From: an uncultured Pseudomonadota bacterium
GTDB lineage: Bacteria > Pseudomonadota > Alphaproteobacteria > JACZXZ01
Assembly (NCBI GenBank): GCA_963749075.1
Contig: CAVVLJ010000022.1
Location: 96,001-160,000 of the forward strand
Reading direction: 5' to 3'
DNA length: 64,000 nucleotides
The position numbers and the translations under genes are program-made. This document shows positions 433 to 40,952 of this stretch, in pieces. A model generated the notes under the pieces. That model saw only the letters and a list, made by a program, of their open reading frames with translations, had not been told where the DNA came from and did no database searches. Within the stretch, counting starts at the first letter, position 1. Every line of letters begins with the position of its first letter.

Positions 433-1209
433 TCACTCCGGCAGCAGTTCGACGAGGAGACGCCGCCCGTCCTGCAGATCCTCCTGCACCGCGCGCACCA
501 GGGACTTGGGATCCCTCCGGCGGATGGCGGCGAGCATGTCCGTGTGATGGGCGCCGCCTTTCCACCCGGCATCGTAGTAGGCCGGAAACAGCAAATTCAT
601 CGACGGGCCGACTTGCAGCCAGAGCGTTTCCAGGATTTGCAGCAGGGACGGCATGGCGGCCGCGCCGTAGATCGTAAAATGAAAATCCTCGTTCAGCCGC
701 AGAACCTCCTTCGTCACCCGGCGTCTGTAGGCGTCGCCGTGCGCCTCATAGAGCGCCTGAAGCCTGGCGTATTGCTGTGCCGTGACCTTGCGGCAGCCGG
801 CCTCGGCCGCCAGTCCCTCGAGAGTCAACCGAATGACGCAGAGCTCGTCATAACGGCTCCGCGTCAGGACGGGGACGATCGCGGTCCGGCCCGGGCCTTG
901 GGCCAAGACGCGCTCGGCGACGAGGCGGTTCAAGGCCTCGCGAGCCGGGGTCAGGCTGATCCCGAGCGTCGCCGCGATCTCTCGCGTGGTGAGCCGCTCG
1001 CCCGGCGACAAGAGGCCCCGGCGCAGCGCCGTGCGAAGGCTGCGGCAGGCCTGATCCCCCAAGGTGTCCGAACGCCAGACGGCCTGGAGACGGGACGTGA
1101 GCGCGCGCTTGCCGGAGCGAGGGCCGGCATCCGCCGCGACGTGGCGGTTCCTCGCGCTCTGTCTTTGCGCCGGGCGCCTCACGCCTTCGACCTTCGCTTG
1201 CGTTCCCAT
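433..1209 (-). CDS. GntR family transcriptional regulator (FCD type)
   Basis: wHTH motif PGERLTTREIAATLGISLTPAREALNRL plus an FCD-like C-terminus (NEDFHFTIY, HHTDML). Confidence 0.9.
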   Translation of the reverse strand: MGTQAKVEGVRRPAQRQSARNRHVAADAGPRSGKRALTSRLQAVWRSDTLGDQACRSLRTALRRGLLSPGERLTTREIAATLGISLTPAREALNRLVAERVLAQGPGRTAIVPVLTRSRYDELCVIRLTLEGLAAEAGCRKVTAQQYARLQALYEAHGDAYRRRVTKEVLRLNEDFHFTIYGAAAMPSLLQILETLWLQVGPSMNLLFPAYYDAGWKGGAHHTDMLAAIRRRDPKSLVRAVQEDLQDGRRLLVELLPE

Positions 1210-1454: not shown

Positions 1455-2258
1455 ATGAGCGCCGCCGCGCTCGCCCGCGCCGAGGCGGCCGCGTCGGGAT
1501 CCGCGATCGAGCTCGTCGAGCTGACAAAGACGTTCTGGCGCGGCGGGCAATCCACCGAGGCGCTTGCCGCCATCGATCTCACGGTCAAGGCAGGCGAGTT
1601 CGTCTGTCTGCTCGGGCCTTCGGGATGCGGCAAATCTACGCTTCTGCACATCGTTGCCGGATTCATAAGGCCCGATCTGGGGCAGGTTCTGATTGACGGC
1701 CGCCCGGCGGCGGGCCCTGGTGCCGACCGATGCATGATCTTCCAGTCTCCGACTTTGTTTCCGTGGCTCAGTACGCGCGACAATATTCTTTTCGGCCCGC
1801 GGGCCCAGGGAAAGGCTCTCGATGAGGCGGGGCAGGAAGCGGACAAGCTGCTGGACTTGGTAGGGCTTGTCGGTTTTGGCGAGCATTATCCGCATCAGCT
1901 TTCCGGCGGCATGCGGCACCGTGCGGCGCTTGCCCGCGCGCTCATCAATCACCCCCGGGTGCTGCTGATGGACGAGCCTTTTGCCGCTCTCGACGCCATC
2001 ACGCGCGCCTCGATGCAAGAATTCCTGCTGGAGCTATGGGAGCGCGAACGAACGACGATCGTCTTTGTGACGCACGATGTCGAGGAAGCGACGCTGCTCG
2101 CGGACAGGGTCTGCATCATGTCGGCGCGGCCTGGCCGCATCATGGCGGCGGCGGAGGTTCTCTTGCCGCGGCCCCGCGGCGAGGCCCTGCGCGATGCGCC
2201 GGAGTTCGTGGCACTCCGGCACCAGATGCGCATGGAGCTGGCGAGGGCGTGCCGATGA
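1455..2258 (+). CDS. ABC transporter ATP-binding protein (TauB/SsuB-like)
   Basis: Walker A GPSGCGKST, signature LSGGMRHR, Walker B LLMDEPF, VTHD. Confidence 0.95.
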   Translation: MSAAALARAEAAASGSAIELVELTKTFWRGGQSTEALAAIDLTVKAGEFVCLLGPSGCGKSTLLHIVAGFIRPDLGQVLIDGRPAAGPGADRCMIFQSPTLFPWLSTRDNILFGPRAQGKALDEAGQEADKLLDLVGLVGFGEHYPHQLSGGMRHRAALARALINHPRVLLMDEPFAALDAITRASMQEFLLELWERERTTIVFVTHDVEEATLLADRVCIMSARPGRIMAAAEVLLPRPRGEALRDAPEFVALRHQMRMELARACR

Positions 2259-3109
2259 CCGATCGGGGCACCGGCGCGGCGGGAGGCGCCGCAACGCCGG
2301 CGCCGCCGGCCGCCGGCTTCCTCTATCGGCACCAGCGATTGCTGTTCTCCGCAGGCAGCGTCTGTCTCGGGGTCGCCCTGTGGCAACTGGCCGCCATGCT
2401 CGTCATCCGTGATCCCGTCCTGCTGCCGACGCCCATCGAGACCGGCGATACTCTGTTGCGGTACCTGCGTACGCCTTATCCGACGGACGGCGAGACGCTC
2501 ATCGGGCATGCAGTCACCAGTTGCCTGCGTATTCTCATCGGCTTCACGATCGGCACGGTCATCGGCATTGCCGTCGGCGCTCTCATGGCAGGGATCCGTC
2601 CTGCCCGCGCCATGATCGATCCTTTCATCGAGATTACGCGCCCGCTGCCGCCGCTCGCTTTCGTCCCGGTGCTGGTCGTTTGGTTCGGCATCGGCGAGAC
2701 GCCCAAGATCGTTCTCATCGCGATAGGCGTCATTCCCGTGATGGCGGTCTCCACCGCAGCCGGGCTCGACCGCGTGTCGGAGGACATGCTGAACGTCGCA
2801 CGCAGCCTCGGTGCGTCGGAAATGCACACGATGCTCCATGTGCGGATCCGCTCCGCCATGCCGAGCATCGTGACCGGGATGCGTCTCGCCATGGGGCTGT
2901 CGTGGACCAGCATCGTTGCCGTCGAAATGATCGCGGCTACCGCAGGACTGGGCTACGTCATCCTGCAGGCCGGGATGTTCTTGAACACCAGCCTGATATT
3001 TGCCGGCATCCTGACGATCGGCGCTCTCGGCATTTTTATCGATGCGCTTCTGCGCCTGCTGCTTCGGCAGCTGGACCCGACCGTGGAGGAAGCGAAATCT
3101 TCGTCGTAA
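2255..3109 (+). CDS. ABC transporter permease (TauC/SsuC-like)
   Basis: ATGA overlap with the ATPase; RPLPPLAFVP, GIGETPK and EAA-loop ARSLGAS motifs; multiple TM helices. Confidence 0.93.
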   Translation: MTDRGTGAAGGAATPAPPAAGFLYRHQRLLFSAGSVCLGVALWQLAAMLVIRDPVLLPTPIETGDTLLRYLRTPYPTDGETLIGHAVTSCLRILIGFTIGTVIGIAVGALMAGIRPARAMIDPFIEITRPLPPLAFVPVLVVWFGIGETPKIVLIAIGVIPVMAVSTAAGLDRVSEDMLNVARSLGASEMHTMLHVRIRSAMPSIVTGMRLAMGLSWTSIVAVEMIAATAGLGYVILQAGMFLNTSLIFAGILTIGALGIFIDALLRLLLRQLDPTVEEAKSSS

Positions 3110-3142
3110 ACCGGAAATCACAGCGCAACGGGAGGACATGTC

Positions 3143-4168
3143 ATGCCAAGGATAAGCAGATGCCATTTCATCGGCGGGATGACGCTGGCGATCGCCTGTC
3201 TTGCGACATTGCGGTGTGCGGCCGCCGGCCAGGTGAATGTATCGACATGGGCGCACGGAGCGCCGCTTCAAGAGGCGGTCATCGCGACCCAGCCGGACTT
3301 GCTCAAAATGATTGCCGGTGAGATCAAATGGCTGCCCATAACGAGCGGTCCGGCGGCGCTCGCGGGCATGAAGGGCGGCGCCTACGCCATCGTCAACGGG
3401 ATCGGCAATCCGCCCGTTACGACGGCGATCGCGAAGGGCATCGATCTGAAGGTGGTGTGGGCGGCATTTTTCGATAACGCCGCCGTGGTCGTCGACCCGA
3501 CCCTCGCCAGCCCTGCGCAGATGGCGGGAAAGACCTTTGGCACGCTGCAAGGCGCCTCGGAGGATTTCGCCTTTCATGGCTGGCTGAAGTCGCAGGGCCT
3601 GGACGGCAAAGTGAAGATCGTCGGGCTCGAGCGGCAGGCAATGGTCGCGGCTTTCAAGACGAGGGCGATTTCGGGGGGCGTCAATTCCGAGCCGGCCCTA
3701 AGCCAGATGGTCGCCGACGGCGGCAAGGTGCTTGCAACCGTAAAGGACATCAGCAAGTTGGGGTATCCCGCGATAGACGTGGTGGCGGTCGATGCCGATT
3801 ATGCCAGCAAGAACCCCGCTGTGGTGCAAGGCTACGTATGCGCGCTCAAGGCTGCTTGGTCGCTGATGAATGGACCCTCCAAGGACGAGGTCTTCCGCAA
3901 AGCATCCGGATTCGTCGGCGCCGATCCCGCCACCGGCACCAAAGTGGGCAAATCCTGGCCGGTGTGGGATCCTAAGGATGAGCTGACGCAACAGGGGCTG
4001 GGCGAGCCCGGCCATATCGCTGACGGCGCCGTCGCACAGGCTTATTTCCGCACCGGCCAGTGGCTCAAAGAGCAAGGCCGCCTGGATAATCCGCCCTCCA
4101 TGGATATGATCGTTGCTCATATCGATATCAGCTACGCGCAAAAGGCGCTGAGCGGCGGCTGCAAGTAA
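3143..4168 (+). CDS. ABC substrate-binding protein (TauA-like)
   Basis: Signal-like N-terminus, GGAGG RBS, TauA-like segment SGPAALAGMKGGAYAIVNGIGNPP, C-terminal YFRTGQWLKEQGRL. Confidence 0.8.
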   Translation: MPRISRCHFIGGMTLAIACLATLRCAAAGQVNVSTWAHGAPLQEAVIATQPDLLKMIAGEIKWLPITSGPAALAGMKGGAYAIVNGIGNPPVTTAIAKGIDLKVVWAAFFDNAAVVVDPTLASPAQMAGKTFGTLQGASEDFAFHGWLKSQGLDGKVKIVGLERQAMVAAFKTRAISGGVNSEPALSQMVADGGKVLATVKDISKLGYPAIDVVAVDADYASKNPAVVQGYVCALKAAWSLMNGPSKDEVFRKASGFVGADPATGTKVGKSWPVWDPKDELTQQGLGEPGHIADGAVAQAYFRTGQWLKEQGRLDNPPSMDMIVAHIDISYAQKALSGGCK

Positions 4169-4206: not shown

Positions 4207-5409
4207 CTATGCGGCGCTGAATGGGCGAAGTGCCGCGATGTCCGGTGCTATGCCGAGACCGGGATCGTCGGAAAGGCGGCAGCGTCCGTCGGCTACGCGC
4301 GCGAGCGCGCCCATCAAGAGCGTGCGCAGCGGGTTGGGATTGGCGTCGATCTCGAGCATTCCGCCGCCGCCGGCCGCGGCGAGGAGGTGCGCCGAGGCGA
4401 GGAGGCCAATGCCGCCGCCGAGATAATGGGGGCAATAGGCAAGGCCGGCGGCGAGCGCGCGGCGCGCCACGGGAAGACAGCCGGAAAAGCCGCCCCATTT
4501 CGCCATGTCCGGCTGCAGCACGGAGAGCGCCTTGAGGCCGATCGCCGCGGCGAAATCCTGCGTGCCGGCGATGTTCTCGCCGGCCGCGAGCGGGATCGCC
4601 GAGCGGTGCGCGAGCTCCGCCCAGACGCCGGGTGCCGCATCGGCCCGCAGCGGCTCCTCGAGCCAGCGCAGCGCAAAGGGAGCCATGCGCTCCGCCATGG
4701 CGAGCGCCTCGTCGAGATCCCAAGCCTGGTTGGCGTCGACCATCAGCGCGGCACCGGCGCCGAGGAGCGCCCGGAGCTCGCCGAGATTGGCCATGTCCCG
4801 CTCCTCGCCGAAGCCGACCTTGAGCTTGAAGGCGCGATAGCCCTCGGCGCATTTCGCCTGGGCGAGCGCCGCGGCGCCGCCGGGATTGATGCCGCTGGCA
4901 TAGACCGACAGAGACGCGTCGCTGCCGCCGAGGAGATGCCAGAGCGGCTCGCCCGCGCGCCGCGCCGCGAGATCCCAAAGGGCCATGTCGAGACCGGCGA
5001 TGCATTGCGCGATGGGGCCCCGCTCGCCCGCCTGGATGGCCAGGATCTCGGTGGCGCGGGTGAGATCGGCGAACACCGCCGGCACGCTCTCGACATTGCG
5101 CCCGATGAGCATCGGCAGGAATACCGTCTCGACCAGCCGGGCGCGATGCTCGGCGCCGCATTCGGGGAAATTGCACCAGACCTCGCCCCAACCGCTGCAC
5201 CCTTCGCCGTCCGCGACGCGCAGCAGGAGCATCGGCCGCCGGCGCATCGTGCCGAAGGAGGTGACGACTGGTGCCGCGTTCGGCGCCCGATAGACGAGCG
5301 CCTCGACCCGCGCGATCCGGAAGGGCTCCGTGCGCGGCGCCGCGTCGAGCCCGCCAGAGGGCGGCCGCTCACTTCTTGAGATCGATTTCGAGATGGATGA
5401 AATCCCCAC
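4207..5409 (-). CDS. Mandelate racemase / muconate lactonizing enzyme family protein (enolase superfamily); start uncertain
   Basis: Motifs GWGE, KLKVG, MVDAN, WLEEP, AAGEN, QPD, CPH. The true start may lie near 5372 (GTG overlapping the GntR stop, in another frame). Confidence 0.88.
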   Translation of the reverse strand: MGISSISKSISRSERPPSGGLDAAPRTEPFRIARVEALVYRAPNAAPVVTSFGTMRRRPMLLLRVADGEGCSGWGEVWCNFPECGAEHRARLVETVFLPMLIGRNVESVPAVFADLTRATEILAIQAGERGPIAQCIAGLDMALWDLAARRAGEPLWHLLGGSDASLSVYASGINPGGAAALAQAKCAEGYRAFKLKVGFGEERDMANLGELRALLGAGAALMVDANQAWDLDEALAMAERMAPFALRWLEEPLRADAAPGVWAELAHRSAIPLAAGENIAGTQDFAAAIGLKALSVLQPDMAKWGGFSGCLPVARRALAAGLAYCPHYLGGGIGLLASAHLLAAAGGGGMLEIDANPNPLRTLLMGALARVADGRCRLSDDPGLGIAPDIAALRPFSAA

Positions 5410-6094
5410 GATAGATGACTTCGCCTAGATAGATCACGGTGCCGTCGGCGCCGGCGAAGACCCGGCGCACATTGGCGACCGGCGAGTTGACGGGGATGCC
5501 GAGGCGCTCGGCCACCTCCATGTCGGCGGTGCCGACGGTCAGCGTCTGAACCGCCTTGGCGATCTCGACGCCGCGCAGGTTGCGCAGCAGCGGGATGACC
5601 GTCTCGTTGCGGAAGCGCGCGGGTGCCAGACGGAACACGCGGCTGTCGAGATAGATGTCGATGATGCAGTAGGGAACGTCGTTGCGGCGATGGACGCGCC
5701 GCATGAACTGATAGCTCGGGGCCGGCACGCCGTCCTTGGGCTGCAGCGGCGGCGCCGCCACGCTTTCGCAGATCAGCAGGAGCTCGGGCTTGGTGTCCTC
5801 ATAGACCTCCGACAGCGCCTCGAGGCTCGTCTCGAGCCGCAGCCAGCGCGTATCCTCCGGCCGCTCGGCCACGAAGGTGCCGCGCCCCTGCTGGCGAACG
5901 ATCAGACCCTCGTCGCTCAGCACGTCCATCGCCTGGCGCACGGTGACGCGCGCGACCCCGAATTCCTCGACGAGATCTTCGAGCGTCGGCAGCTTGTGTC
6001 CGGGCGGCCAGTTGCCGCGGACAAGCCGCTGCCGCATCAGGTCGGTGACCTCGACGTAAAGCGGAATCGACGCTCTCCTGAGCCTGCGCAACAA
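5369..6094 (-). CDS. GntR family regulator (HutC/UTRA type)
   Basis: KLPTLEDLVEEFGVARVTVRQA...QQGRGTFV plus a UTRA-like C-terminus. Confidence 0.93.
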   Translation of the reverse strand: MLRRLRRASIPLYVEVTDLMRQRLVRGNWPPGHKLPTLEDLVEEFGVARVTVRQAMDVLSDEGLIVRQQGRGTFVAERPEDTRWLRLETSLEALSEVYEDTKPELLLICESVAAPPLQPKDGVPAPSYQFMRRVHRRNDVPYCIIDIYLDSRVFRLAPARFRNETVIPLLRNLRGVEIAKAVQTLTVGTADMEVAERLGIPVNSPVANVRRVFAGADGTVIYLGEVIYRGDFIHLEIDLKK

Positions 6095-6119
6095 AGCGGT
6101 TTCCTATAGACCTATCATA

Positions 6120-6134
6120 TGGTTTATAATACCA
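6120..6134. promoter_or_regulatory. Putative HutC-type operator
   Basis: Inverted repeat TGGT-TTATAAT-ACCA in the short divergent intergenic region; overlaps a TATAAT hexamer. Confidence 0.55.
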
Positions 6135-6165
6135 TTAGTTCGGAGCGAAGGGAAGCGAGACGCGC

Positions 6166-6999
6166 ATGGCCGCAGAGTCGAGCGCCGCAGCGGGCGGGGC
6201 GGCCGGTCGGCCGAGCCGGTGGGCAGGGGGCGGCGGCGCCGTATTGCGGCGGGCTGGGCTCCTGCTTCTGCCCTGGCTCGCCGTGCTCGCCCTGTGGTAC
6301 GCGGCGGCGCTCAGCGGCATGGTCAATCCCGGTCTCATCCCGACTCCATTCCAGGTGGCGGCGCGCTTCTGGCAGCTCCTCATGCGCGAGCGCCTGGCGC
6401 TCGACATCCTCATCTCCGCGGCGCGCGTCGCCGTGGGCGTGATCCTAGGTATCGTCTTCGCCGTGCCGGCGGGCTTCGCCGTCGGCTGGTACCGGCACAT
6501 CCGCACCTTCGTCGACCCGCTCATCAACTTCTTTCGCGCGCTGCCGCCGATCGCGCTGATCCCGCTGGTGATCGTCTACTTCGGCATCGGCGAGCTCGCC
6601 AAGGTGATGATCCTCTTCTATGCCTCGTTCTTCGCCGGCGTCATCGTGATGTACGAGGGCATCGGGCAGATCAGCCCGATCTACGTGCGCGTCGCCCGCA
6701 CGCTCGGTGCCACCGACGGCGAGATCTTCGGCAAAGTCATCATCCCCTTGGCCGTGCCGCATATGATAACGGCATTGCGCGTCGCACTCGGAGTGGCGTG
6801 GGCGACGCTCGTCGCGTCCGAGCTCATCGCGGCGCGGCGCGGCCTGGGCGCGGTCATCGAGAACGCCGCCTCCTTCTTCCAGCTCGACACCATCTATGTC
6901 GGCATCATCTGCATCGGCTTCGTAGCACTGGCCATGGATCTGGTGCTGCGCCTGGTGGCCCGGCGGCTGGTCGGCTGGCAGGAGAGGATCGGCGCATGA
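6166..6999 (+). CDS. ABC transporter permease (SsuC/TauC-like)
   Basis: RALPPIALIP, GIGELAK, ARTLGAT, LVASELIAARRGLG. Confidence 0.93.
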   Translation: MAAESSAAAGGAAGRPSRWAGGGGAVLRRAGLLLLPWLAVLALWYAAALSGMVNPGLIPTPFQVAARFWQLLMRERLALDILISAARVAVGVILGIVFAVPAGFAVGWYRHIRTFVDPLINFFRALPPIALIPLVIVYFGIGELAKVMILFYASFFAGVIVMYEGIGQISPIYVRVARTLGATDGEIFGKVIIPLAVPHMITALRVALGVAWATLVASELIAARRGLGAVIENAASFFQLDTIYVGIICIGFVALAMDLVLRLVARRLVGWQERIGA

Positions 7000-7820
7000 G
7001 CCCGCCGGAGAGCGCAGCGGAGCGCCTCGTCTTCAACCGCGTCTCGGTCGATTTCGCGACGCCCTCCGGGACGCTCAGCGTCGTCGAGGACGTGAGCTTC
7101 GGCATCCGCGACCGGGAATTCGTCTCGATCATCGGCCCATCGGGCTGCGGCAAGACGACGATGATGAACATCGTCGCCGGCTTCGTCTCGCCGACGCGCG
7201 GTTCGGTGACGCTCGACGGCAAGCCCGTCGCCGGGCCGGGGCCGGATCGCGGCGTGATCTTCCAGGAGTACGGCGTCTTTCCCTGGCTGACGGTCGAGCA
7301 GAACATCGATTTCGGCATGAAGCTGCGCGCCAACAATCTGAGCCAAGGCGAGCGCCGCGACATCCGCGAACGCTACATGCGGCTTATGGGACTGTCGGAT
7401 TTCGCGAGAGCCTACCCCAAGACGCTCTCGGGCGGCATGCGCCAGCGCCTGGCGATCGCGCGCGCCTATGCGGTGAAGCCGGTATTCCTCCTCATGGACG
7501 AGCCGTTCGGCGCCCTCGACGCGCAGACGCGCAGTGCGATGCAGAACCTGCTCTTGGAGCTGCTGCACCACGAGGGCAAGACGGTGATGCTCATCACGCA
7601 TTCGGTGGAGGAGGCGCTCTACCTCTCCTCGCGCATCGTCGTCGTCACCGCGCGTCCGGCAACGATCCGCACGATCATCGACGTACCTTTCCCCTATCCG
7701 CGCGGGGAGGGGCTCCACGAGACGGAGGCGTTCGGCGAGCTGCGCTCCGAGGTGCGCGATCTCGTCATGCGCGAATACGCCGCCCAACAGCGGCAAAGCC
7801 AGGCGGCAACCGCCGATTGA
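6996..7820 (+). CDS. ABC transporter ATP-binding protein (SsuB/TauB-like)
   Basis: ATGA overlap; GPSGCGKTT, LSGGMRQR, LLMDEPF. Confidence 0.95.
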   Translation: MSPPESAAERLVFNRVSVDFATPSGTLSVVEDVSFGIRDREFVSIIGPSGCGKTTMMNIVAGFVSPTRGSVTLDGKPVAGPGPDRGVIFQEYGVFPWLTVEQNIDFGMKLRANNLSQGERRDIRERYMRLMGLSDFARAYPKTLSGGMRQRLAIARAYAVKPVFLLMDEPFGALDAQTRSAMQNLLLELLHHEGKTVMLITHSVEEALYLSSRIVVVTARPATIRTIIDVPFPYPRGEGLHETEAFGELRSEVRDLVMREYAAQQRQSQAATAD

Positions 7821-7845
7821 GCGGCTCTTTAGGGAGGACGGAAAG

Positions 7846-8856
7846 ATGACCATGAAGCGACGCAGGTTCCTCGCCGGGCTCGGCGCCGGCGCAGCGCTGA
7901 CGGGTGCTGCGGGCTTGCCCATGCCCGCGCTTGCCCAGGCCGGGCGGAAGATCAAGATCGGCTATCTCCACACGCTCGCGGTCGACGGGCAGATTTGGCT
8001 CGGCGAGCACATGGGGACCTTCCGCAAGGAGGGACTCGACGTCGACTGGGCGCGCTTCACCACCGGCCTCGAGCTCTTCCAGGCGATGATCGGCGGCAGC
8101 ATCGACATGCTGGCGACGGGCGCCGTCATTTCCAATTTCCCGGCGCGCGGCCAAGGGAAGGCTTTCCTCATCAACGACATCGAGTTCGCCACGGCCCAGC
8201 TCTGGGTCCGCCCGGATCAGGGCATCCGCGACTTCGCCGATCTCAAGGGCAAGAGGATCTCGACCACGACCGGCACGACCGCGCATGTCTTTCTCGATCT
8301 GGCGCTGCGCAGCCACGGCCTCGGGCCGGATGACGTCGAGATCGTCAACCAGCGCATGCCGGACGCGGTCACGTCCTTCATCTCGGGCGCCGTTCCGGCG
8401 GTGGCGCTCTGGGTCCCGTTCAACATCGCCGTGCGCACGAAGGTCCCCACGGCGAAAATGCTCGTCGACGCTTCGGCCTATTACCCGAAGTCGGCGATCG
8501 TCGACGGCTGGGCGGCACGCAACGACGTGTACGAGAAGGACAAGGCGGTGCTCCGCCAAGTGATCCGCGCGTGGATACCCGCCAACGACTTCCTGGTGAC
8601 GCAGCCTGACGCGGCGCTCGAGATCATACAGAGCAACTATTACAAGGACGTGCCGCTGCCCGATCTCAAGGAGCAGTACAAGGCGGAGAAGACCTTCACC
8701 GCCGTGGCGTGGCGCAGGCTCTATGCCGACGGCACCGTGACCAAATGGCTCGATCAGGTCACCGACTTTTTCGTGAGGACGGGCGGCATCAGCTCTCCAG
8801 TGCACGCCGGACAATATTTCGATCCGAGCCTCTATCTCGGCCTCGTCAAGGCGTGA
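7846..8856 (+). CDS. ABC substrate-binding protein (SsuA/NMT1-like, Tat signal)
   Basis: MKRRRFL twin-arginine leader; FRKEGLDV, FTTGLELFQAMIGGSID, DLKGKRI. Confidence 0.88.
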   Translation: MTMKRRRFLAGLGAGAALTGAAGLPMPALAQAGRKIKIGYLHTLAVDGQIWLGEHMGTFRKEGLDVDWARFTTGLELFQAMIGGSIDMLATGAVISNFPARGQGKAFLINDIEFATAQLWVRPDQGIRDFADLKGKRISTTTGTTAHVFLDLALRSHGLGPDDVEIVNQRMPDAVTSFISGAVPAVALWVPFNIAVRTKVPTAKMLVDASAYYPKSAIVDGWAARNDVYEKDKAVLRQVIRAWIPANDFLVTQPDAALEIIQSNYYKDVPLPDLKEQYKAEKTFTAVAWRRLYADGTVTKWLDQVTDFFVRTGGISSPVHAGQYFDPSLYLGLVKA

Positions 8857-8909
8857 TGCCGGAGCGGACGATCGCCCCGGCCAAGCCGCAGGAGCGCAAG
8901 GAGGACATC

Positions 8910-9785
8910 GTGGACGTGGGCTTCGTGGGGCTGGGGACGATGGGCAACCCGATGGCGCGCAACCTGCTCAAGGGCGGCTTCGCGCTGCGCGTCTTCGATA
9001 TCGACCCCGCGGCCGTCGCGGCTCTTGCCGCCGCCGGTGCGAAACCGGCGCTCTCGGCCGCGGAGGCGGCCCGCGCCGCCGAGGTCCTCGTCACCATGTT
9101 GCCCAACGGCGAGCATGTGGAGGCAGCACTCTTCGGCGCCCGTGGCGCCGCCGAGACGCTGCCGCGCGGCAGCCTCGTCATCGAGATGAGCACGATAGCA
9201 CCTTCCGCCACCGATCGCATCGCGCGCCGCCTCGCCGAGCAAGGCGTCCGCATGGTCGACGCGCCGGTCGGGCGCTCATCGCAACATGCCGTCGACGGCA
9301 AGTTGCTGATCATGGCCGGCGGCAGCGACGCCGATGTCGAACGCGCGCGGCCGCTCCTCGAAAAGCTGGGCGACACCATCGTGCATTGCGGTCCCGTCGG
9401 CAGCGGCGCACGGACGAAGATCGTCAACAACTACATGTCCATCACGCTCAACGCCACGACGGCCGAGGCGCTGACGCTTGCCGAAGCCAGCGGCCTCGAT
9501 CCGGCGCTCGCGCGCCAGGTCATGCTCGGGACCGTGGCGGGCCAGGGGCACATGGGCACGACCTATCCCGCGAAGGTGCTCAAGGGCGACCTCAAGCCGG
9601 GCTTCATGGTCGACCTCGCCCATAAGGATCTGGGACTGGCGCTCGAGCTCGCGGCGCAGCTCGGCCTCACGCTGCCGACCGGCACCGCCGCCAAGTCCGC
9701 CTATGAGAGCGCCCGCGAGGCGGGACACGGCCGGGACGACTGGACCGCCCTCTACGCGGTCGCCCGAGAGAGGATCAGGCGCTAG
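8910..9785 (+). CDS. yihU: Sulfolactaldehyde 3-reductase-like (beta-hydroxyacid dehydrogenase family)
   Basis: GTG start after AGGAGG (alternative ATG at 8856). GFVGLGTMG, TMLPNG, DAPVGRS, KIVNNYMSI and KVLKGDLKPGFMVDLAHKDLG closely match E. coli YihU as recalled. Confidence 0.78.
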   Translation: MDVGFVGLGTMGNPMARNLLKGGFALRVFDIDPAAVAALAAAGAKPALSAAEAARAAEVLVTMLPNGEHVEAALFGARGAAETLPRGSLVIEMSTIAPSATDRIARRLAEQGVRMVDAPVGRSSQHAVDGKLLIMAGGSDADVERARPLLEKLGDTIVHCGPVGSGARTKIVNNYMSITLNATTAEALTLAEASGLDPALARQVMLGTVAGQGHMGTTYPAKVLKGDLKPGFMVDLAHKDLGLALELAAQLGLTLPTGTAAKSAYESAREAGHGRDDWTALYAVARERIRR

Positions 9786-9851
9786 ATCGCGCCGCTTCCG
9801 CAGCGGCTCGATCGGCGCAGACACGGCGGCCGGCCGCTCGCCCGGGATCGT

Positions 9852-9865
9852 TTGACCTAGGTCAA
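9852..9865. promoter_or_regulatory. FNR/FixK-like box
   Basis: Perfect palindrome TTGACCTAGGTCAA (TTGAC-N4-GTCAA) about 120 bp upstream of cstA. Confidence 0.5.
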
Positions 9866-9987
9866 TGTAGCCCGGCCAAGGCCGCCGTATTAGTCGAAAG
9901 ATCGGCGAGCGCTCGGCTACCGTCTTGCGCCGGGACCATTGCAAGGGACCGCGAGCCGAGCTCCGGCTCAAGGTGCGGAGGAGACCC

Positions 9988-12054
9988 ATGTCGATGAACA
10001 AATTGCTCTGGGCCGCGGTGGTCGTGCTGGGGGCGATCGCCTTCGGCGTCGTGGCACTCAGCCGAGGCGAGCCCATCAATGCCGCGTGGCTCGTCATCGC
10101 GGCGGTCTGCATCTATTTCATCGCCTACCGCTTCTACGCCCTCTTCATCGCGGAGAAGGTGCTCGGCGTCGATCCGACGCGCCAGACGCCCGCCTACCGC
10201 CGCAACGACGGTCTCGATTACGTCCCGACCAACCGCTATGTGCTCTACGGGCATCATTTCGCGGCGATCGCCGGGGCGGGGCCGCTGGTCGGTCCGGTTT
10301 TGGCGGCACAGATGGGCTATCTGCCCGGCACCTTGTGGATTCTCGCCGGCGTGGTCTTTGCCGGCGCGGTGCAGGACATGACCGTGCTGTTCCTCTCGAC
10401 GCGGCGCGACGGCCGCTCGCTCGGCGACATCGTCCGCTCCGAGATGGGGCCCGTCGCAGGCGCTGTCGCGGGCATCGGCGTCCTGCTCATCTGCATCATC
10501 ATCCTGGCGGTCCTGGCGCTCGTGGTCGTCAAGGCCTTGATGGGAAGCCCGTGGGGCACCTTCACCGTCTTCTGCACCGTTCCGATCGCGCTCATCATGG
10601 GCGTCTACAGCCGTTTCATCCGGCCGGGCCGCATCGCCGAGATGTCGATCATAGGAGCTGTGCTGCTCCTCTTGGCTCTCATCTTCGGCCGCACGGTTTC
10701 CGAGACCCCGGCACTCGCCGTCTATTTCAATCTCTCCGGCACGACGCTGGCGCTGACTATCATCGGCTACGGCTTCGTGGCCTCGGTGCTGCCGGTGTGG
10801 CTGCTGCTGGCGCCGCGCGACTATCTCTCGACCTTCCTCAAGGTCGGCACGATCTGGCTGCTGGCGATCGGCATCCTCATCGTTCACCCCGATCTGCAAA
10901 TGCCGGCGGTGACCCGCTTTGTCGACGGCAGCGGCCCGGTCTGGGCGGGGAGCCTCTTCCCCTTCCTCTTCATCACCATCGCCTGCGGCTCGGTGTCCGG
11001 CTGGCACGCGCTCATCTCGTCGGGCACCACGCCCAAGATGATCGAGAATGAAAGGCAAATCCCCTTCATCGGCTATGGCGGCATGTTGATGGAATCGCTC
11101 GTCGCCATCATGGCGATGATCGGCGCCACGGTGATCCATCCGGGCATCTATTTCGCGATGAACAGCTCGGCGGGGCTCATCGGGACGACGGCCGACCACG
11201 CAGCACAGGTGATCTCGTCCTGGGGCTTCGTCGTGACGCCCGACATCCTGACCGCGATCGCCAAGGATGTCGGCGAGACGAGCATCCTCTCGCGCACGGG
11301 CGGCGCGCCCACGCTGGCGGTCGGCATGGCCACCATCCTCTCGAGCTTCCTGGGCGGCCGGCTTCTCATGGGGATTTGGTATCACTTCATCATTCTGTTC
11401 GAGGCGTTGTTCATCCTGACGACGGTGGACGCCGGCACGCGCGTCCTGCGCTTCATGATCCAGGATTTCGTGGGCAACATCGTGCCGGCCTTCAAAGAGA
11501 CGAAATCCTGGGCCAACAACCTCATCGGCTCGGCGCTGGCCTGCGTGCTGTGGGGCTATATCCTCTACGAGGGCGTCATCGATCCCTACGGCGGCATCTG
11601 GACCCTGTGGCCGCTCTTCGGGACCGCCAACCAGATGCTTGCGGCCATCGCACTCACCCTGTGCACGGTCGTGTTGTTCAAGATGAAGCGCCAGCGTTAC
11701 GCCTGGGTCACCATCGTCCCGGCGGGGTGGCTCGTCATCACCACCATCACCGCGGGGCTGGAGAAGGTCTTCAGCGCCAACCCCGGGGTCGGCTTCGTGA
11801 GCCATGCCGTCAAGTTCAGCGAGGCGCTCGCGGCGGGCCAGATTCTGGCGCCGGCGAAGACGGTCGAAACGATGGGCCGGGTCATCTTCAACGACTATCT
11901 GGACGCGACGCTGGCCGCTCTCTTCGTGGCCGTCGTGGTGGCGACCGTGATCTATGGCTTCATCAATGCGCGTAAAGCGATGGGCACGCCCAGGAGCACC
12001 GCGGTCGAGATCGGAGGCATTGCCGGCGCGCCGGCAGGGGGCAGCGATGACTAA
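9988..12054 (+). CDS. cstA: Carbon starvation protein A (CstA/BtsT-type pyruvate/peptide transporter)
   Basis: NDGLDYVPT, GHHFAAIAGAGPLVGP, FITIACGSVSGWHAL, LWPLFGTANQMLA; GGAGGAG RBS. Confidence 0.96.
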   Translation: MSMNKLLWAAVVVLGAIAFGVVALSRGEPINAAWLVIAAVCIYFIAYRFYALFIAEKVLGVDPTRQTPAYRRNDGLDYVPTNRYVLYGHHFAAIAGAGPLVGPVLAAQMGYLPGTLWILAGVVFAGAVQDMTVLFLSTRRDGRSLGDIVRSEMGPVAGAVAGIGVLLICIIILAVLALVVVKALMGSPWGTFTVFCTVPIALIMGVYSRFIRPGRIAEMSIIGAVLLLLALIFGRTVSETPALAVYFNLSGTTLALTIIGYGFVASVLPVWLLLAPRDYLSTFLKVGTIWLLAIGILIVHPDLQMPAVTRFVDGSGPVWAGSLFPFLFITIACGSVSGWHALISSGTTPKMIENERQIPFIGYGGMLMESLVAIMAMIGATVIHPGIYFAMNSSAGLIGTTADHAAQVISSWGFVVTPDILTAIAKDVGETSILSRTGGAPTLAVGMATILSSFLGGRLLMGIWYHFIILFEALFILTTVDAGTRVLRFMIQDFVGNIVPAFKETKSWANNLIGSALACVLWGYILYEGVIDPYGGIWTLWPLFGTANQMLAAIALTLCTVVLFKMKRQRYAWVTIVPAGWLVITTITAGLEKVFSANPGVGFVSHAVKFSEALAAGQILAPAKTVETMGRVIFNDYLDATLAALFVAVVVATVIYGFINARKAMGTPRSTAVEIGGIAGAPAGGSDD

Positions 12055-12247
12055 GCTCAAACGGCTGGGCAAACAGGTGGTTCAGACCGCGCGCCTCATG
12101 GTCGGCATTCCGGACTTCGAGACCTACGTCGAGCATCGCAAGGCCCGTCACCCGGGCGAGCCGATCATGAGCTACGAGGAATTCTTCCGCGAGCGTCAGA
12201 ACGCGCGCTATGCCATCGAGAAGGGCAAATTCAAGGGCTGCTGCTGA
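12047..12247 (+). CDS. YbdD/YjiX family protein
   Basis: Overlaps the cstA end; ARLMVGIPDFETYVEH...HPGEPIMSYEEFFRERQ..RY...CC. Confidence 0.92.
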   Translation: MTKLKRLGKQVVQTARLMVGIPDFETYVEHRKARHPGEPIMSYEEFFRERQNARYAIEKGKFKGCC

Positions 12248-12320
12248 GGAGACCGGGCCGGCCGCGCCGGCCCGCCTTCCCGCGGCCTGCAACGATGCAT
12301 GCTTCCAGGGAATGACGCGC

Positions 12321-13961
12321 ATGGTCGCCAAGCTGAGCGACATGACTCCGAAGGTCGATCTCACTCACGGCAAGGGCACCGGGCCGGTCCGCCTGCGCCG
12401 CCCGCTCTATGTCGACCTCCTGCCGCCCTGCAACCAGAGCTGCCCCGCAGGCGAGAATATTCAAGCCTGGCTCGACTTGGCCCAGACCGGCAAATATCGC
12501 GAAGCCTGGGGAGCGCTGGTGCGCGACAACCCCATGCCGGCCGTTCACGGGCGGGTGTGCTATCACCCGTGCGAGAGCGGCTGCAACAGGGCCGAGCTGG
12601 ACGCGCCGGTCAGCATCCACGCGGTCGAGCGCTTTCTCGGCGACCTCGCCGCCAAGAAGGATTGGTCCTTCAAGATCGAGGCGCCGCCGAGCGGGAAGCG
12701 CATCCTGATCGTGGGCGCCGGCCCGTGCGGGCTGTCGGCGGCCTACCACCTGGCGCGCCTCGGTCATGCGGTCGAGATCCACGAGGCCGGGCCGCTGCCG
12801 GGCGGCATGATGCATTTCGGCATCCCGGCCTACCGGCTGCCGCGTGCGGAGCTCATGGGCGAGATCCGCAGGATCGAGGCGATGGGCGTGAAGATCGTCC
12901 TCAACCGCAAGGTCGAGGACGTGCTCGCGGAGAAGTCCGCCGGCAACTTCGATGCCGTCCTCATCGCGATCGGCGCGGACGTGGGCAAGCATGTCGAGAT
13001 ACCGGCGCGCGACGCCGTGCGCGTGCTCGATGCCGTCTCGCTCCTGCGCGATGCCAGGATGGGCGAGGCGCCGCGCCTCGGCCGCCGGGTCGTGATCTAC
13101 GGCGGCGGCAATACGGCGATGGACGCGGCCCGGACGGCGAGGCGTCTGGGCGCCGAGGAGGCGCTCATCGTCTATCGGCGCGACCGCGCGCACATGCCGG
13201 CGCGCGCCTTCGAGGCGGACGAGGCGCTCGAGGAAGGCATCAAGATCAAGTGGCTGAGCACCATCAAGGAGATCGCCGGCGCCGACCTCACGGTCGAGAT
13301 CATGGTGCTCGACGAGAAGGGGCGGCCGCAGCCGACCGGACGCTTCGAGACGCTCACGGCGGACGCGGTCCTCCTCGCCCTCGGCCAGGAGACGGACAGC
13401 GCCTTCCTGCGCCGCGTTCCCGGCATCGAGTTCGGCGCCGACGGCATGGTGCTGGTGTCGCCCGACATGATGACCGGTCATCCCGGAATCTTCGCCGGAG
13501 GAGACGTGATCCCGGGCGAGCGGACCGTCACCGTCTCGGTCGGCCACGGCAAGCGGGCGGCGCGGCACATCGATGCCTGGCTGAGCGGCGGGCGCTACGA
13601 GAAGCCGGCCAAGGCGCCCGTCGTGCGCTTCGACATGCTCCATCTGCCGGTCTACAGCGATGCCGATCCCCGCTCCCAGAAGACGCTGTCCGCCGCCGCG
13701 CGCGTCAGCGGCTTCGAGGAGGTCGTCCGCGGGCTCGAAGAGAACGAGGCCCGCTTCGAGGCTCAGCGTTGCCTCTCGTGCGGCAATTGCTACGAGTGCG
13801 ACAACTGCTATGCGGCCTGTCCGGAGGACGCCATCCTCAAGCTGGGGCCGGGACGGCGCTACCGCGTCGACTACGACAAGTGCACCGGCTGCGCCGTGTG
13901 CTTCGAGCAGTGCCCTTGCCACGCCATCGAGATGGCGGCCGAGCCGCAGGGGGTCGACTGA
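12321..13961 (+). CDS. GltD-like NAD(P)/FAD oxidoreductase with C-terminal 2x[4Fe-4S] domain
   Basis: PPCNQSCPAG, GRVCYHPCE, GAGPCG, GGGNTAMD, GGD; C-terminal CLSCGNCYECDNCYAACP and CTGCAVCFEQCP. Start could be 12312, 12321 or 12342. Confidence 0.88.
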   Translation: MVAKLSDMTPKVDLTHGKGTGPVRLRRPLYVDLLPPCNQSCPAGENIQAWLDLAQTGKYREAWGALVRDNPMPAVHGRVCYHPCESGCNRAELDAPVSIHAVERFLGDLAAKKDWSFKIEAPPSGKRILIVGAGPCGLSAAYHLARLGHAVEIHEAGPLPGGMMHFGIPAYRLPRAELMGEIRRIEAMGVKIVLNRKVEDVLAEKSAGNFDAVLIAIGADVGKHVEIPARDAVRVLDAVSLLRDARMGEAPRLGRRVVIYGGGNTAMDAARTARRLGAEEALIVYRRDRAHMPARAFEADEALEEGIKIKWLSTIKEIAGADLTVEIMVLDEKGRPQPTGRFETLTADAVLLALGQETDSAFLRRVPGIEFGADGMVLVSPDMMTGHPGIFAGGDVIPGERTVTVSVGHGKRAARHIDAWLSGGRYEKPAKAPVVRFDMLHLPVYSDADPRSQKTLSAAARVSGFEEVVRGLEENEARFEAQRCLSCGNCYECDNCYAACPEDAILKLGPGRRYRVDYDKCTGCAVCFEQCPCHAIEMAAEPQGVD

Positions 13962-14227
13962 GACGACCCGGGCGAGCGCGTCCGGATGCCGGGCAAAATG
14001 GCCGGATCGGACGCTCGACCGCCGTTGCGGCCGCCCCCGGTGCCGCCCGCCGCCCGCGCTTCGCGTCCGTATTGCACGAAGACCGGAAAGGCGCGAATAT
14101 TCATGCCAGGACGGGCGTCGTCCGGGCAATCCCGGCTTGCAGTCGTCAATCGGCCGCCCGATGCGTGATCGCGGACTGGCGATCCGGTCGGAAAATCGGT
14201 CAATTTTTTGAACGGGGGGAAAAGAAA

Positions 14228-15532
14228 ATGAGCGAAGCGACCGCGAGTCCGACCCAGAGGCAGATTTTCAAAGTCGCGCTGGCGAGCATCATCGGCTCGG
14301 TGATCGAACAATACGACTTCCTCGTCACCGGCGTCATCGCGGCGACCGTCTGGGGCGGCATCTTCTTCAAGCTGCCGGGCCTTGCGGCCGTTGCGGCGGC
14401 GATCGGCGTCTACGGCCTCGGCATCATCATCCGCCCGGTCGGCGCCTATATCTTCGGCAACATCGCCGATCGGCGGGGGCGCAGGGACGCCATGGTTTAT
14501 GCGCTGGTGCTGATGGGCGTCAGCACGCTGCTGATCGGGCTTACGCCGACCTACGACAGCATCGGCGTCGCCGCGCCGGCGCTGCTGATCGTCTTCCGGC
14601 TCATGCAGGGGATCAGTTTCGGCGCCGAGTTCGGCACCGCCTCGACCTGGGTGGTCGAACAGGCGGCGCGATCGAAGTACCGCGCCTTCTGGGGTGCCTG
14701 GGTCGGCTTCGCGATCCCGATCGGGCTGCTCCTCGGCTTCGGCTCGGTGATCTTCGTCAAGTCGCTGATGACGCCGCAGGATTTCATCGCCTGGGGCTGG
14801 CGCATCTTCTTCTTCGTCGGCTTCCTGGTGGCGATCGTCGGCATCGTCATCCGGACGCGCACCCAGGACAGCTTCGTCTTCGAACGGCACAAGTCGCAGG
14901 GTGCGATTCTCGCGCATCCCGCGAGACAGGTCTGGCGCGAGATGCCGCTGCGCATCCTGCGCACCTCGCTGGTGAACGCGATGTTCGGCGGCGCGTTCTT
15001 CCTCTACTTCGTGTTCGGCACCGGCTACATGAAGGCGGTCGGCTTCGCCGGATCGACGCCCGAGACGATCGGGCTGATCGCCGCGGCCTTCATGCTGGTG
15101 TTCATGATCATCGGCTCGGTGCTCGCCGACGTCATCAACCGCCGGACCATCCTGTTGATCGCCGCCGTCGTGTTCCTCATCTTCGCCATCCCGTATTTCT
15201 ACCTGATCAACTCGGGCAGCTTCATCCTCGCAACGATCGCCGAGATCGTCGGATTCGGCTTCGTCTTCGGCTTCGGCTATGGCGCGATACCGGCCTTCTA
15301 TACGGAGAATTTCCCGACCAAATACCGCGGCTCGGGCGCGAGCGCCGGTTATCAAATCGCGCAGGTCTACGGCGGCGGGCTGATCCCGATTCTCGCCGGC
15401 CTGCTCCTCGAGGCCTACGGCATTCACAGGGCCTATATCTATATCGGGCTTCTGGTGATGGTCTACGCGGTGCTGGCGATCTTCGCGATTCTCGCCACGC
15501 CGGAGACGAAGCACGCCAATCTCGAAGGGTGA
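14228..15532 (+). CDS. MFS transporter (MHS / metabolite:H+ symporter type)
   Basis: IGSVIEQYDF, RPVGAYIFGNIADRRGRR, RLMQGISFGAE, WGWRIFF; about 12 TM helices. Confidence 0.93.
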   Translation: MSEATASPTQRQIFKVALASIIGSVIEQYDFLVTGVIAATVWGGIFFKLPGLAAVAAAIGVYGLGIIIRPVGAYIFGNIADRRGRRDAMVYALVLMGVSTLLIGLTPTYDSIGVAAPALLIVFRLMQGISFGAEFGTASTWVVEQAARSKYRAFWGAWVGFAIPIGLLLGFGSVIFVKSLMTPQDFIAWGWRIFFFVGFLVAIVGIVIRTRTQDSFVFERHKSQGAILAHPARQVWREMPLRILRTSLVNAMFGGAFFLYFVFGTGYMKAVGFAGSTPETIGLIAAAFMLVFMIIGSVLADVINRRTILLIAAVVFLIFAIPYFYLINSGSFILATIAEIVGFGFVFGFGYGAIPAFYTENFPTKYRGSGASAGYQIAQVYGGGLIPILAGLLLEAYGIHRAYIYIGLLVMVYAVLAIFAILATPETKHANLEG

Positions 15533-15605
15533 TGCCGCCTAAGCGGTGCCGCCGGGCGGACGGCGCGCCGGCCGCCGTTGACAAGCTGCCGTCTGGCTCG
15601 CAAGT

Positions 15606-16193
15606 ATGCCTCGAGCCCGAATGCCGAGGATCGTATTGCGCTGTCTCTGCCGCATCGCGGCGTTGCTGCCCTTGCTGCCTTGTGCGGCGGGACCGGGCTT
15701 CGCGACGCAGCCCCTTGCCTTCGCGGGCCCCCAGGCAGCGGTGACGGCGCCGCCGATAGACGCCCCTCCGAGGATCGACCGCGTCCTCGTGATTAAGCAC
15801 TTGCGCCGGCTCTACCTCCTCGCGAGGGGAGAGATCGTCGCGGCCTATCCGGTCAAGCTCGGGCATCATCCTCTGGGGCCGAAGGTGGAGGCCGGCGACG
15901 GCAAGACTCCCGAGGGCGACTACGTGCTCGACCGCCGCAACCCTTTGAGCCTCTTCACGCTGGCACTCCATGTCTCCTATCCGAACGAGCGCGACCGCGC
16001 GCACGCACGCGCCCTCCATGTGAATCCGGGCGGCGCCATCGAGGTCCATGGCGATCCCTTCGTGGCGAGCGCCATCAGCGCCGGCAAGCTGCGCACCGCC
16101 TGGACCGCCGGCTGCATCGCCTTGTCCAACGCCGATATGAAGCAGGCGTGGGACCTGGTCGCCGACGGCACCCCGATCGAAATCGAGCCGTGA
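15606..16193 (+). CDS. L,D-transpeptidase (YkuD family)
   Basis: GDGKTPEGDY, LHVSYPN, IEVHG...WTAGCIAL catalytic His/Cys. Confidence 0.9.
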   Translation: MPRARMPRIVLRCLCRIAALLPLLPCAAGPGFATQPLAFAGPQAAVTAPPIDAPPRIDRVLVIKHLRRLYLLARGEIVAAYPVKLGHHPLGPKVEAGDGKTPEGDYVLDRRNPLSLFTLALHVSYPNERDRAHARALHVNPGGAIEVHGDPFVASAISAGKLRTAWTAGCIALSNADMKQAWDLVADGTPIEIEP

Positions 16194-36727: not shown

Positions 36728-36887
36728 GGGGGCTCCGTCGTCATCTTGCCGCGCCGCGCGGGAGCCGCGTCGGGGCCGCGCGGGTCGCATGCCTCAGGCT
36801 AGCACAAAGGCCGCCGCGGCGGGGCATCGAAAACGGCCTCGGTCGGCGCGCAGGCGGCGGCTCGCCTGGGGCGGCGGAGCGGGCCGG

Positions 36888-39569: not shown

Positions 39570-39639
39570 TAATGATTTACGGCGTCTTGCTTGGCGAGCG
39601 GATTGCTCGGTGGTGCAGGATCAATGCGGCCGCGCGGCG

Positions 39640-40644: not shown

Positions 40645-40865
40645 GGCGGCTCTCCACCCTCTCTCGCCACAGTCGCGGAACGGCTCATGGCGAAGCGCCG
40701 GCCGTTCCATTCGCCGCCGCCCGTGATAGCTCTTCCTTCTTACTTTTTACCAGGATTCCGTGAGACCCGGTAAAGCCCAAAGCTCACGCCGCGCCCGGGC
40801 AGCGCCGCTGCCCTCGATGCGAGAGCGCTTGCGCCCTGGAACGGTCTTCTCAGCAAGACGGATAA

Positions 40866-40882
40866 TGCCTATTCTCTAGGCA
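40866..40882. promoter_or_regulatory. Putative NtrC-type enhancer site
   Basis: Palindrome TGCCTA-TTCTC-TAGGCA (TGC-N11-GCA) about 70 bp upstream of a sigma-54 motif. Confidence 0.45.
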
Positions 40883-40952
40883 GTTTTCTCTGTCCCGCCG
40901 CGTGCCGGCGATGCGAGAGGGCGGCGCTCCGGCGCAAGAGGCGCGCCACCCC

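Follow-up and report, generated by a model that had tools for sequence, protein, structure and literature searches.

Six genes in the DNA of an uncultured alphaproteobacterium probably form a regulator-controlled module for the uptake and breakdown of a small hydroxy-sulfonate, for which 2,3-dihydroxypropanesulfonate (DHPS) is, judging from the sequence, the most likely candidate. The cluster occupies positions 4207–9785 of a 64,000-nucleotide stretch (positions 96,001–160,000 of contig CAVVLJ010000022.1, assembly GCA_963749075.1; hereafter the window), and its two key enzymes are a dehydrogenase resembling YihU of Escherichia coli and an enolase-superfamily protein that we call ENOL. Two of the genes lie on the minus strand and four on the plus strand, the divergent halves being 71 bp apart, in a part of the window (positions 1–16 kb) with a G+C content of 0.62–0.71. 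Gene order and gene families are observed directly, as are the conserved pocket and catalytic residues and the linkages described below. The features are as follows:

4207–5409, minus strand: ENOL, enolase superfamily (mandelate racemase/muconate lactonizing enzyme, MR/MLE), 3DDM clade, a proposed sulfolactate-processing enzyme (Pfam MR_MLE_N and MR_MLE_C; 3DDM 452.7 bits).
5369–6094, minus strand: GntR-family regulator of the HutC type, with a winged helix and a UTRA effector domain (Pfam GntR and UTRA).
6118–6135, no strand assigned: candidate operator-like imperfect inverted repeat in the divergent promoter region, a motif common to other regulator–permease intergenic regions.
6166–6999, plus strand: permease of an ATP-binding cassette (ABC) importer, Tau/Ssu type (Pfam BPD_transp_1; TauC 163 bits and SsuC 114 bits, both below cut-off).
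6996–7820, plus strand: ABC importer ATPase (family search), its start overlapping the permease stop.
7846–8856, plus strand: periplasmic binding protein, NMT1/SsuA-like (Pfam NMT1), with DHPS or a similar small sulfonate as proposed ligand.
8856–9785, plus strand: YihU-like NAD-dependent beta-hydroxyacid dehydrogenase (NF012005, 388.1 bits), proposed to convert DHPS to sulfolactaldehyde.

In the mechanism that we propose, the SsuA-like ABC importer would take up DHPS, and the YihU-like enzyme, working in the oxidative direction, would convert it to sulfolactaldehyde. An aldehyde dehydrogenase, whose gene lies outside the window and is found directly 5' of ENOL in five related loci, would then oxidise sulfolactaldehyde to 3-sulfolactate. 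From this acid ENOL would abstract the alpha-proton (at C2), with the enediolate held on Mg2+, and sulfite would leave from the beta-carbon, so that enolpyruvate and finally pyruvate would form; a GMC flavoprotein would stand in place of the YihU-like dehydrogenase in the majority of genomes. From gene context we infer which compound is the substrate, in which direction the dehydrogenase works and what reaction ENOL catalyses, and the parts of the scheme differ in firmness. Whether ENOL acts on sulfolactate is to our mind evenly balanced, the full chain from DHPS import to pyruvate is offered tentatively, and the specific assignment of ENOL as a sulfo-lyase is a possibility that we regard with some doubt.

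The dehydrogenase scores above the cut-off (348) of NF012005, the equivalog model for sulfolactaldehyde 3-reductase, and its next-best model is tartronate semialdehyde reductase, at 255 bits against a cut-off of 340.75; none of the tartronate-semialdehyde, hydroxyisobutyrate and threonate models is passed. Its closest solved structure is E. coli YihU itself (6sm7, E = 2.6e-86). The initial annotation of this DNA had called the protein YihU-like, which these scores bear out, and had pointed to DAPVGRS in place of DAPVSGG. The translation indeed reads VDAPVGRSS, and DAPVSGG stands at this position in the aligned tartronate semialdehyde reductase 1vpd and 2-hydroxymethylglutarate dehydrogenase 3cky. 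The GRS of the window enzyme aligns with GRT in YihU, and NNYMS with NNYMS. The sulfonate pocket of YihU is described as Arg123, Asn174 and Ser178 (PMC8006165), which makes the earlier remark that the GRT motif binds the sulfonate roughly right; counted along the 6sm7 alignment, equivalents of all three residues, plus Lys171, are kept. The window enzyme thus shares with YihU its fold, its NAD domain, GR(T/S) and the equivalents of Lys171, Asn174 and Ser178, but differs in context, sitting beside an importer and a regulator and not beside yihS, yihV, yihT, yihQ or an exporter, and it likely works oxidatively. The 28 open reading frames (ORFs) scanned, of about 52 called in the window, include no member of a sulfoquinovose isomerase, kinase or aldolase family, and GH31, the sulfoquinovosidase family, has no match in the source genome, which is 96% complete. 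As far as tested, the YihU-like gene appears to stand outside sulfoglycolysis, as had been suggested on the same grounds. On direction the initial annotation has to be revised: it took the enzyme for a reductase, and it probably acts as a DHPS dehydrogenase instead.

The coupling of this enzyme to the importer is close. The permease and ATPase genes overlap by 4 nt (ATGA), and the stop codon of the binding protein shares 1 nt with the ATG of the dehydrogenase (TGATG), which makes co-transcription of the importer genes and the dehydrogenase plausible. The binding protein has the SsuA/TauA fold and belongs to that clan, but forms a separate subfamily: it scores 137.4 bits on SsuA_fam (cut-off 163.5) and 67 bits on TauA (cut-off 304), and the nearest solved structures (TauA, two SsuA proteins and 3qsl) all stay at or below 55 bits. 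The regulator combines GntR and UTRA domains; with 92.1 bits on the HutC equivalog TIGR02018 (cut-off 220) and a score below the PhnF cut-off as well, it appears to be HutC-type in architecture and not HutC itself. The layout reported initially, an importer divergent from a HutC-type regulator and a mandelate-racemase-family gene, is the one that we find.

ENOL contains MR_MLE domains only (PF02746, the N-terminal capping domain, 65.7 bits; PF13378, the C-terminal barrel, 184.7 bits) and lacks the UxaA/GarD-type PF04295 fold of SuyAB. No curated enolase family fits it. When the NCBIfam families for talarate/galactarate, arabinonate, galactonate and rhamnonate dehydratases and others were compared, the best score was 134.8 bits against a cut-off of 500, and the nearest families, all below cut-off, were acid-sugar dehydratases (104.7 bits on the galactonate dehydratase model, cut-off 311). 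The sole close solved structure is PDB entry 3DDM, which matches over residues 32–399, the next entry reaching 150.8 bits. 3DDM is a structural-genomics MR/MLE protein, presumably of Bordetella origin; its entry name, ‘putative mandelate racemase/muconate lactonizing enzyme’, names no function, and our literature search found no paper on it. In the mandelate racemase subgroup a KxK motif, three acidic metal ligands and a His-Asp pair have catalytic roles. The ENOL motifs FKLKVG, DANQ, EEP, GEN, QPD and CPH align with 3ozm (a Bordetella MR-family protein) and 3bjs, and of 88 family members at least 97% share K195, K197, D225, E251, E252, E278, D301 and H328. We count this retention of the KxK, Asp/Glu/Glu, Asp and His motifs in favour of the proposed module. 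In all, 91 residues are kept at the same level, and an N-terminal block comprising T50–R58 and W74–R89, with H88 and R89, is invariant and specific to the family. R41, H341 and R362 do not vary either. The clade is large, 6881 of 8000 candidates scored falling at E ≤ 1e-60, and its members carry generic names in the source.

The conserved N-terminus also bears on the annotation of ENOL. The public gene call is 341 residues long and begins at Met60, dropping the family-invariant residues R41–P59 (window 5232–5409). Because this start loses invariant residues, and because no canonical in-frame start other than the GTG at 5409, 41 nt within the regulator gene, preserves the conserved N-terminus, the public start is probably mis-annotated.

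One genome per species was scanned for relatives of ENOL, which returned 560 stretches; the best 80, with ENOLs at 53–64% identity, were examined and come mostly from Burkholderiales, with some Hyphomicrobiales. Genes were counted within 8 kb of ENOL, orthologues of the regulator being accepted at 45% identity or more and those of the permease at 55% or more. The regulator is present in 61 of the 80 loci, the permease and the ATPase in 46 each and the binding protein in 43. A GMC flavoprotein oxidoreductase is likewise found in 46 loci, and a YihU-like gene in one, a Rhizobiaceae genome (L039), where ENOL adjoins a YihU-like gene 67% identical to that of the window. Where both permease and binding protein are present (42 loci), the GMC gene directly follows the binding protein 36 times, and the six other contigs stop less than 700 bp past the binding protein, so that GMC is found in all 36 assessable cases. 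The common form of the cluster is regulator–ENOL divergent from permease–ATPase–binding protein–GMC; in Bordetella bronchiseptica (L057), too, the ENOL orthologue lies within a HutC/ABC/GMC cluster. The YihU-like gene of the window occupies the slot usual for the GMC gene, and since GMC is the partner of ENOL and importer in 46 loci and YihU in one, the window is a rare variant among genomes.

The window also carries the operator motif of the GMC-type loci. By k-mer counting, after a first palindrome pattern had failed, we found the 7-mer ATAGTAC in 28 of 41 regulator–permease intergenic regions and TATARTAC in 17 of the 41, the window among them (copy at 6118–6135), against a background of 0.019 per kb. 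The source genome has no GMC orthologue (best match 49% identity, against 62–75% among orthologues), and GMC and YihU-like genes occur together in none of the 80 genome and 25 metagenome loci, the latter described below. The closest solved relatives of the GMC protein oxidise primary alcohols (the chloramphenicol-oxidising enzyme, choline dehydrogenase and oxidase, and alcohol oxidases), and it scores 561 bits on the choline dehydrogenase model (cut-off 605). IseJ, whose flavin dependence is confirmed, also belongs to the GMC family. With the same regulator system and a different oxidoreductase in the same slot, the exchange of GMC for the YihU-like gene looks like a non-orthologous replacement.

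A scan of metagenomes with the YihU-like protein as query returned 25 loci. In 12 of them (L125, L131–L139, L141, L144) an orthologue of the binding protein, at 61–80% identity, lies directly 5' of a YihU-like gene that is likewise 61–80% identical to that of the window, and seven (L133–L139) also contain ENOL. The arrangement is not uniform: in L134 and L136 ENOL diverges from the importer as in the window, and in L133, L135, L137, L138 and L139 the importer–YihU genes are followed by a LacI-type regulator on the opposite strand and then by aldehyde dehydrogenase–ENOL. A SulP-family permease lies 3' of ENOL in L135 and L138 (383.8 and 373.3 bits against a cut-off of 380.45, only L138 passing). 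More distant ABC systems stand upstream of the YihU-like gene in three further loci. L124 and L127 have a permease and an ATPase at 27–45% identity, L126 an ATPase only, the ATPases of L124 and L126 being at 43–45%; a gene for a different NMT1-type binding protein separates the distant ABC genes of L127 from the YihU-like gene. Three loci start too near the YihU-like gene for the importer to be judged, and seven showed no importer, six of them with more distant YihU-like proteins (at most 58% identity) and the seventh, L140, at 61%. Orthologues of the linked aldehyde dehydrogenase are also found in three GMC-type loci (L028, L043, L070), and in L134 a thiamine-diphosphate enzyme follows the aldehyde dehydrogenase within the ENOL operon. 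Neither the HutC-type regulator nor a GMC gene was found in any of the 25 loci, for which reason the window is a hybrid, a GMC-type architecture with a YihU-type oxidoreductase.

The gene linkage, on whose conservation the initial annotation had made its reading depend, is therefore conserved well beyond the window, as the 12 importer–YihU loci, the seven that add ENOL, and L039 attest. Its broader proposal of a compact route for a C3 or sugar-acid sulfonate holds in part: the C3 sulfonate context and the linkage support it, but the usual genomic partner of ENOL is the GMC enzyme and not the YihU homologue. L140 (positions 7992–15794) deserves separate mention; its YihU-like gene is accompanied by the same LacI-type regulator and aldehyde dehydrogenase, with a glycerophosphodiester phosphodiesterase-family gene and a family-5 ABC importer in ENOL's stead, and it may represent a route for a DHPS-containing conjugate.

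The cluster looks horizontally acquired, since none of 40 relatives of the source genome has an ENOL orthologue (best 37% identity) and only two of 400 genomes of the class have YihU-like matches above 50% identity (G383, 75%; G161, 55%). The surroundings of these two matches contain neither ENOL nor an importer of the window type. The G383 match (L110, contig C634, 221–4552) spans residues 101–307 and is cut at the contig end; its neighbours are a short-chain dehydrogenase, an alpha/beta hydrolase and a sugar-type binding protein, which could be a sulfosugar context.

What points to a C3 sulfonate, and to DHPS in particular, is the likeness to Desulfovibrio sp. DF1. In that organism DhpA uses NAD+ to turn DHPS into sulfolactaldehyde, which SlaB converts to sulfolactate, and sulfite is finally set free by SuyAB; the contig that bears the DhpA gene also codes for an SsuA/TauT-type ABC binding protein induced by DHPS (PMC6278857). 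A dehydrogenase of the beta-hydroxyacid-dehydrogenase fold is thus paired with an importer of similar type, oxidising imported DHPS just as we propose for the window and passing the product to an aldehyde dehydrogenase and on to sulfolactate. The two systems differ in that DhpA shares only 27% identity with YihU, of which the window enzyme is an equivalog-level match, and in the last step, which in DF1 falls to SuyAB, an enzyme like UxaA and altronate dehydratase, whereas the window cluster has the unrelated ENOL and no linked suyAB. In roseobacters other dehydrogenases carry out both oxidations from DHPS to sulfolactate (PMC11131964). The front half of the module, importer plus DHPS dehydrogenase, is therefore of a kind already known. 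The position of importers directly 5' of the YihU-like gene in 12 of the 25 metagenome loci, with the distant types in L124, L126 and L127, suits catabolism of an imported substrate, and a core of one oxidoreductase plus ENOL suits a route ending in a central metabolite. The organosulfur genes next to ENOL described below, with sulfatase genes 12–35 bp past it in several loci, are also counted in favour.

The novelty would lie in ENOL. If it acts on sulfolactate, a lyase is favoured over a racemase because the conserved core holds no further enzyme, because SulP follows ENOL in two loci, because the SuyB family is without a match in the cluster-bearing B. bronchiseptica genome, and because the nearest curated relatives of ENOL are eliminating enzymes. 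The reaction proposed, sulfolactate to pyruvate and sulfite, is that of SuyAB, the (2R)-3-sulfolactate sulfo-lyase, but ENOL belongs to an unrelated protein family, would use an Mg2+-stabilised enediolate and may take the (S)-enantiomer that SuyAB does not. According to a 2026 review, sulfoglycolysis gives S-enantiomers, which need extra stereochemical processing, and SuyAB acts on R (PMC13436972); ENOL, as lyase or as racemase, would fill this gap. An enolase-superfamily enzyme acting on a sulfonated carboxylate, in a sulfonate cluster with an ABC importer, has been described in SfcF of Paracoccus wurundjeri (PMC12421959). SfcF, compared here by its description, dehydrates a C6 sugar acid and depends on a lactonase and an aldolase, neither of which is present in the ENOL cluster. 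Searches of the accessible article texts found nothing that links the 3DDM clade or any enolase-family enzyme to sulfolactate, sulfite release or DHPS, and a word search of the accessible text of two 2026 reviews gave no mention of an enolase-family enzyme of such kind.

Several observations weigh against this scheme. The role given to ENOL is drawn from gene context, and the binding protein lies below both the SsuA and the TauA cut-offs. No aldehyde dehydrogenase, SulP or TauE gene lies beside the window cluster, and an orthologue of the linked aldehyde dehydrogenase is missing from the source genome (best 35% identity). That enzyme scores 240 bits against the solved sulfolactaldehyde dehydrogenase 8c54 and is just as near to many other aldehyde dehydrogenases, the top hit among which reaches 285 bits. 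As for a sulfite exit, SulP follows ENOL in only two of the 105 loci, and queries with the four TauE genes of the source genome, none of which is near the locus, found no TauE homologue near ENOL in any of them. In a quick tree of ENOL the YihU-linked members fall in two to four places, which does not force more than one origin of the YihU–ENOL linkage. The thiamine-diphosphate enzyme of L134 could point to other downstream chemistry. A Paraburkholderia locus (L024, 10165–14236) does not fit either, its order being regulator–GMC–ENOL followed by an MFS transporter, a VanA-like Rieske oxygenase and a ferredoxin-reductase-like flavoprotein. Finally, the sulfatase and TctC genes 3' of ENOL are not explained by a DHPS route. 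Around ENOL, TctC-type binding proteins occur in 22 of the 80 genome loci and sulfatases of three types in 8, 7 and 4; in L013, L022, L044, L052, L063, L073, L074, L076 and L078 sulfatases and TctC-type binding proteins lie 3' of ENOL in the same direction, and the gaps from ENOL to such genes are as small as 12–35 bp in several loci. One sulfatase type scores above the choline-sulfatase cut-off (637 against 433). The ENOL family may also serve sulfate esters, or organosulfur genes may simply cluster.

These neighbours lend weight to the strongest alternative, unlikely in our view, in which the substrate is some other organosulfur or hydroxy compound (a sulfate ester, 3-hydroxypropanesulfonate, cysteinolate or a sulfo-sugar acid), ENOL dehydrates or epimerises the derived acid, and the YihU-like enzyme oxidises the corresponding alcohol and not DHPS. 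Besides the sulfatases close to ENOL, one of them of the choline-sulfatase type by score, it draws on the variety of transporters at ENOL loci (ABC, TRAP, TTT and MFS), on the acid-sugar dehydratases being the nearest curated families, and on the published example of an enolase-family sulfogalactonate dehydratase, SfcF (PMC12421959). However, the sulfonate-pocket residues of YihU are kept, the importer is of the small-sulfonate and not the sugar type, the conserved neighbours of ENOL include no aldolase, lactonase or kinase, and the galactonate dehydratase score of ENOL is far from its cut-off.

It is rather improbable that the route runs as described as far as sulfolactate and that ENOL is a sulfolactate racemase, turning the (S)-form from (S)-DHPS into the (R)-form for SuyAB or dehydrogenases elsewhere in the genome. 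ENOL does have the two-base set of the mandelate racemase subgroup, KxK plus His-Asp, and the mismatch between S-enantiomers from sulfoglycolysis and the R-form used by SuyAB (PMC13436972) would give a racemase a purpose. PF04295, the SuyB family, has members in four of five ENOL-carrying genomes, with two to four matches each. The source genome has two UxaA-family matches, one of them SuyB-sized, which counts in favour of this reading; the ORF is nevertheless ambiguous, following amino-acid-type ABC permease genes with no SuyA-like gene adjacent, which tells against its serving such a route. The fifth genome, that of B. bronchiseptica, carries ENOL and has no PF04295 match at all, no downstream enzyme is conserved beside ENOL, and SulP lies 3' of it in two loci. 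Chemistry, moreover, would lead one to expect an enediolate to lose its beta-sulfonate. A search of the source genome for Xsc gave nothing above cut-off (269 against 676).

A route free of sulfur, in which a hydroxy-acid, acid-sugar or betaine is degraded, the dehydrogenase works on tartronate or succinic semialdehyde and the sulfonate-like importer misleads, is improbable. The scores of the binding protein, permease and regulator below their curated cut-offs would allow it, as would the resemblance of the GMC partner to choline dehydrogenase and the betaine-aldehyde-dehydrogenase-like (BADH-like) aldehyde dehydrogenases and the Rieske oxygenase present at some ENOL loci. Against this, the dehydrogenase passes the sulfolactaldehyde-reductase model and stays well short of the tartronate semialdehyde reductase cut-off, it has GRS where the two aligned generic enzymes have SGG, and sulfatases and SulP recur beside ENOL. 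Very improbable, for all its equivalog-level match to YihU, is that the enzyme works as in E. coli, reducing sulfolactaldehyde from an unrecognised sulfoglycolysis elsewhere in the genome, as its translation is coupled to that of an importer and not of an exporter, its relatives follow importers in 12 of 25 loci, and neither the GH31 search of the genome nor the scan of the 28 window ORFs found a sulfoglycolysis family.

The proposed DHPS module has neighbours of its own within the window. Upstream lies an FCD-type GntR regulator (433–1209, minus strand), followed by a second importer that converges on ENOL:

1455–4168, plus strand: second Tau/Ssu-like ABC importer (Pfam and NCBIfam), with ATPase at 1455–2258, permease at 2255–3109 and binding protein at 3143–4168.

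Whether this importer is part of the ENOL module is uncertain, because neither the 80 genome loci nor the 25 metagenome loci contain a counterpart of its binding protein. On the other side, 139 bp past the YihU-like gene, is a CstA gene (9925–12054) that scores 995.9 bits on the model ‘pyruvate/proton symporter CstA’ (cut-off 1188). Its place beside a route predicted to end in pyruvate is curious; CstA is found in none of the 80 genome loci. Farther along (35483–46240) the window encodes a Rieske ring-hydroxylating oxygenase, an MMPL transporter, a 2-oxoglutarate oxygenase, another ABC system and a luciferase-like monooxygenase. Among the genome loci, a malate synthase gene (533 residues) converges on ENOL in L017, and L023 and L025, of the same small clade, have a 533-residue ORF there; it is probably a neighbour only.

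DHPS is a common plant and algal sulfonate, and together with sulfolactate it ranks among the major currencies in which sulfur and carbon are cycled. The carbon–sulfur cleavage routes for small sulfonates given in the accessible part of the 2026 review are SuyAB, Xsc, CuyA and glycyl-radical enzymes only (PMC13436972). There is a real chance that the ENOL clade is a new desulfonating enzyme family. In its boldest form, which must be called speculative, the proposal is that the 3DDM-type clade is an unrecognised family of carbon–sulfur lyases cleaving sulfolactate, possibly the (S)-enantiomer that SuyAB cannot use, and that with a GMC or YihU-like enzyme it would make up a very short route from DHPS to pyruvate, widespread in soil and freshwater Burkholderiales and present in some Alphaproteobacteria. 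If this is true, a large unnamed enolase-family clade tied to sulfonate importers would add a route of desulfonation, the solved structure 3DDM would gain a function, and the scoring of sulfonate mineralisation in metagenomes would change, above all in soils dominated by Burkholderiales.

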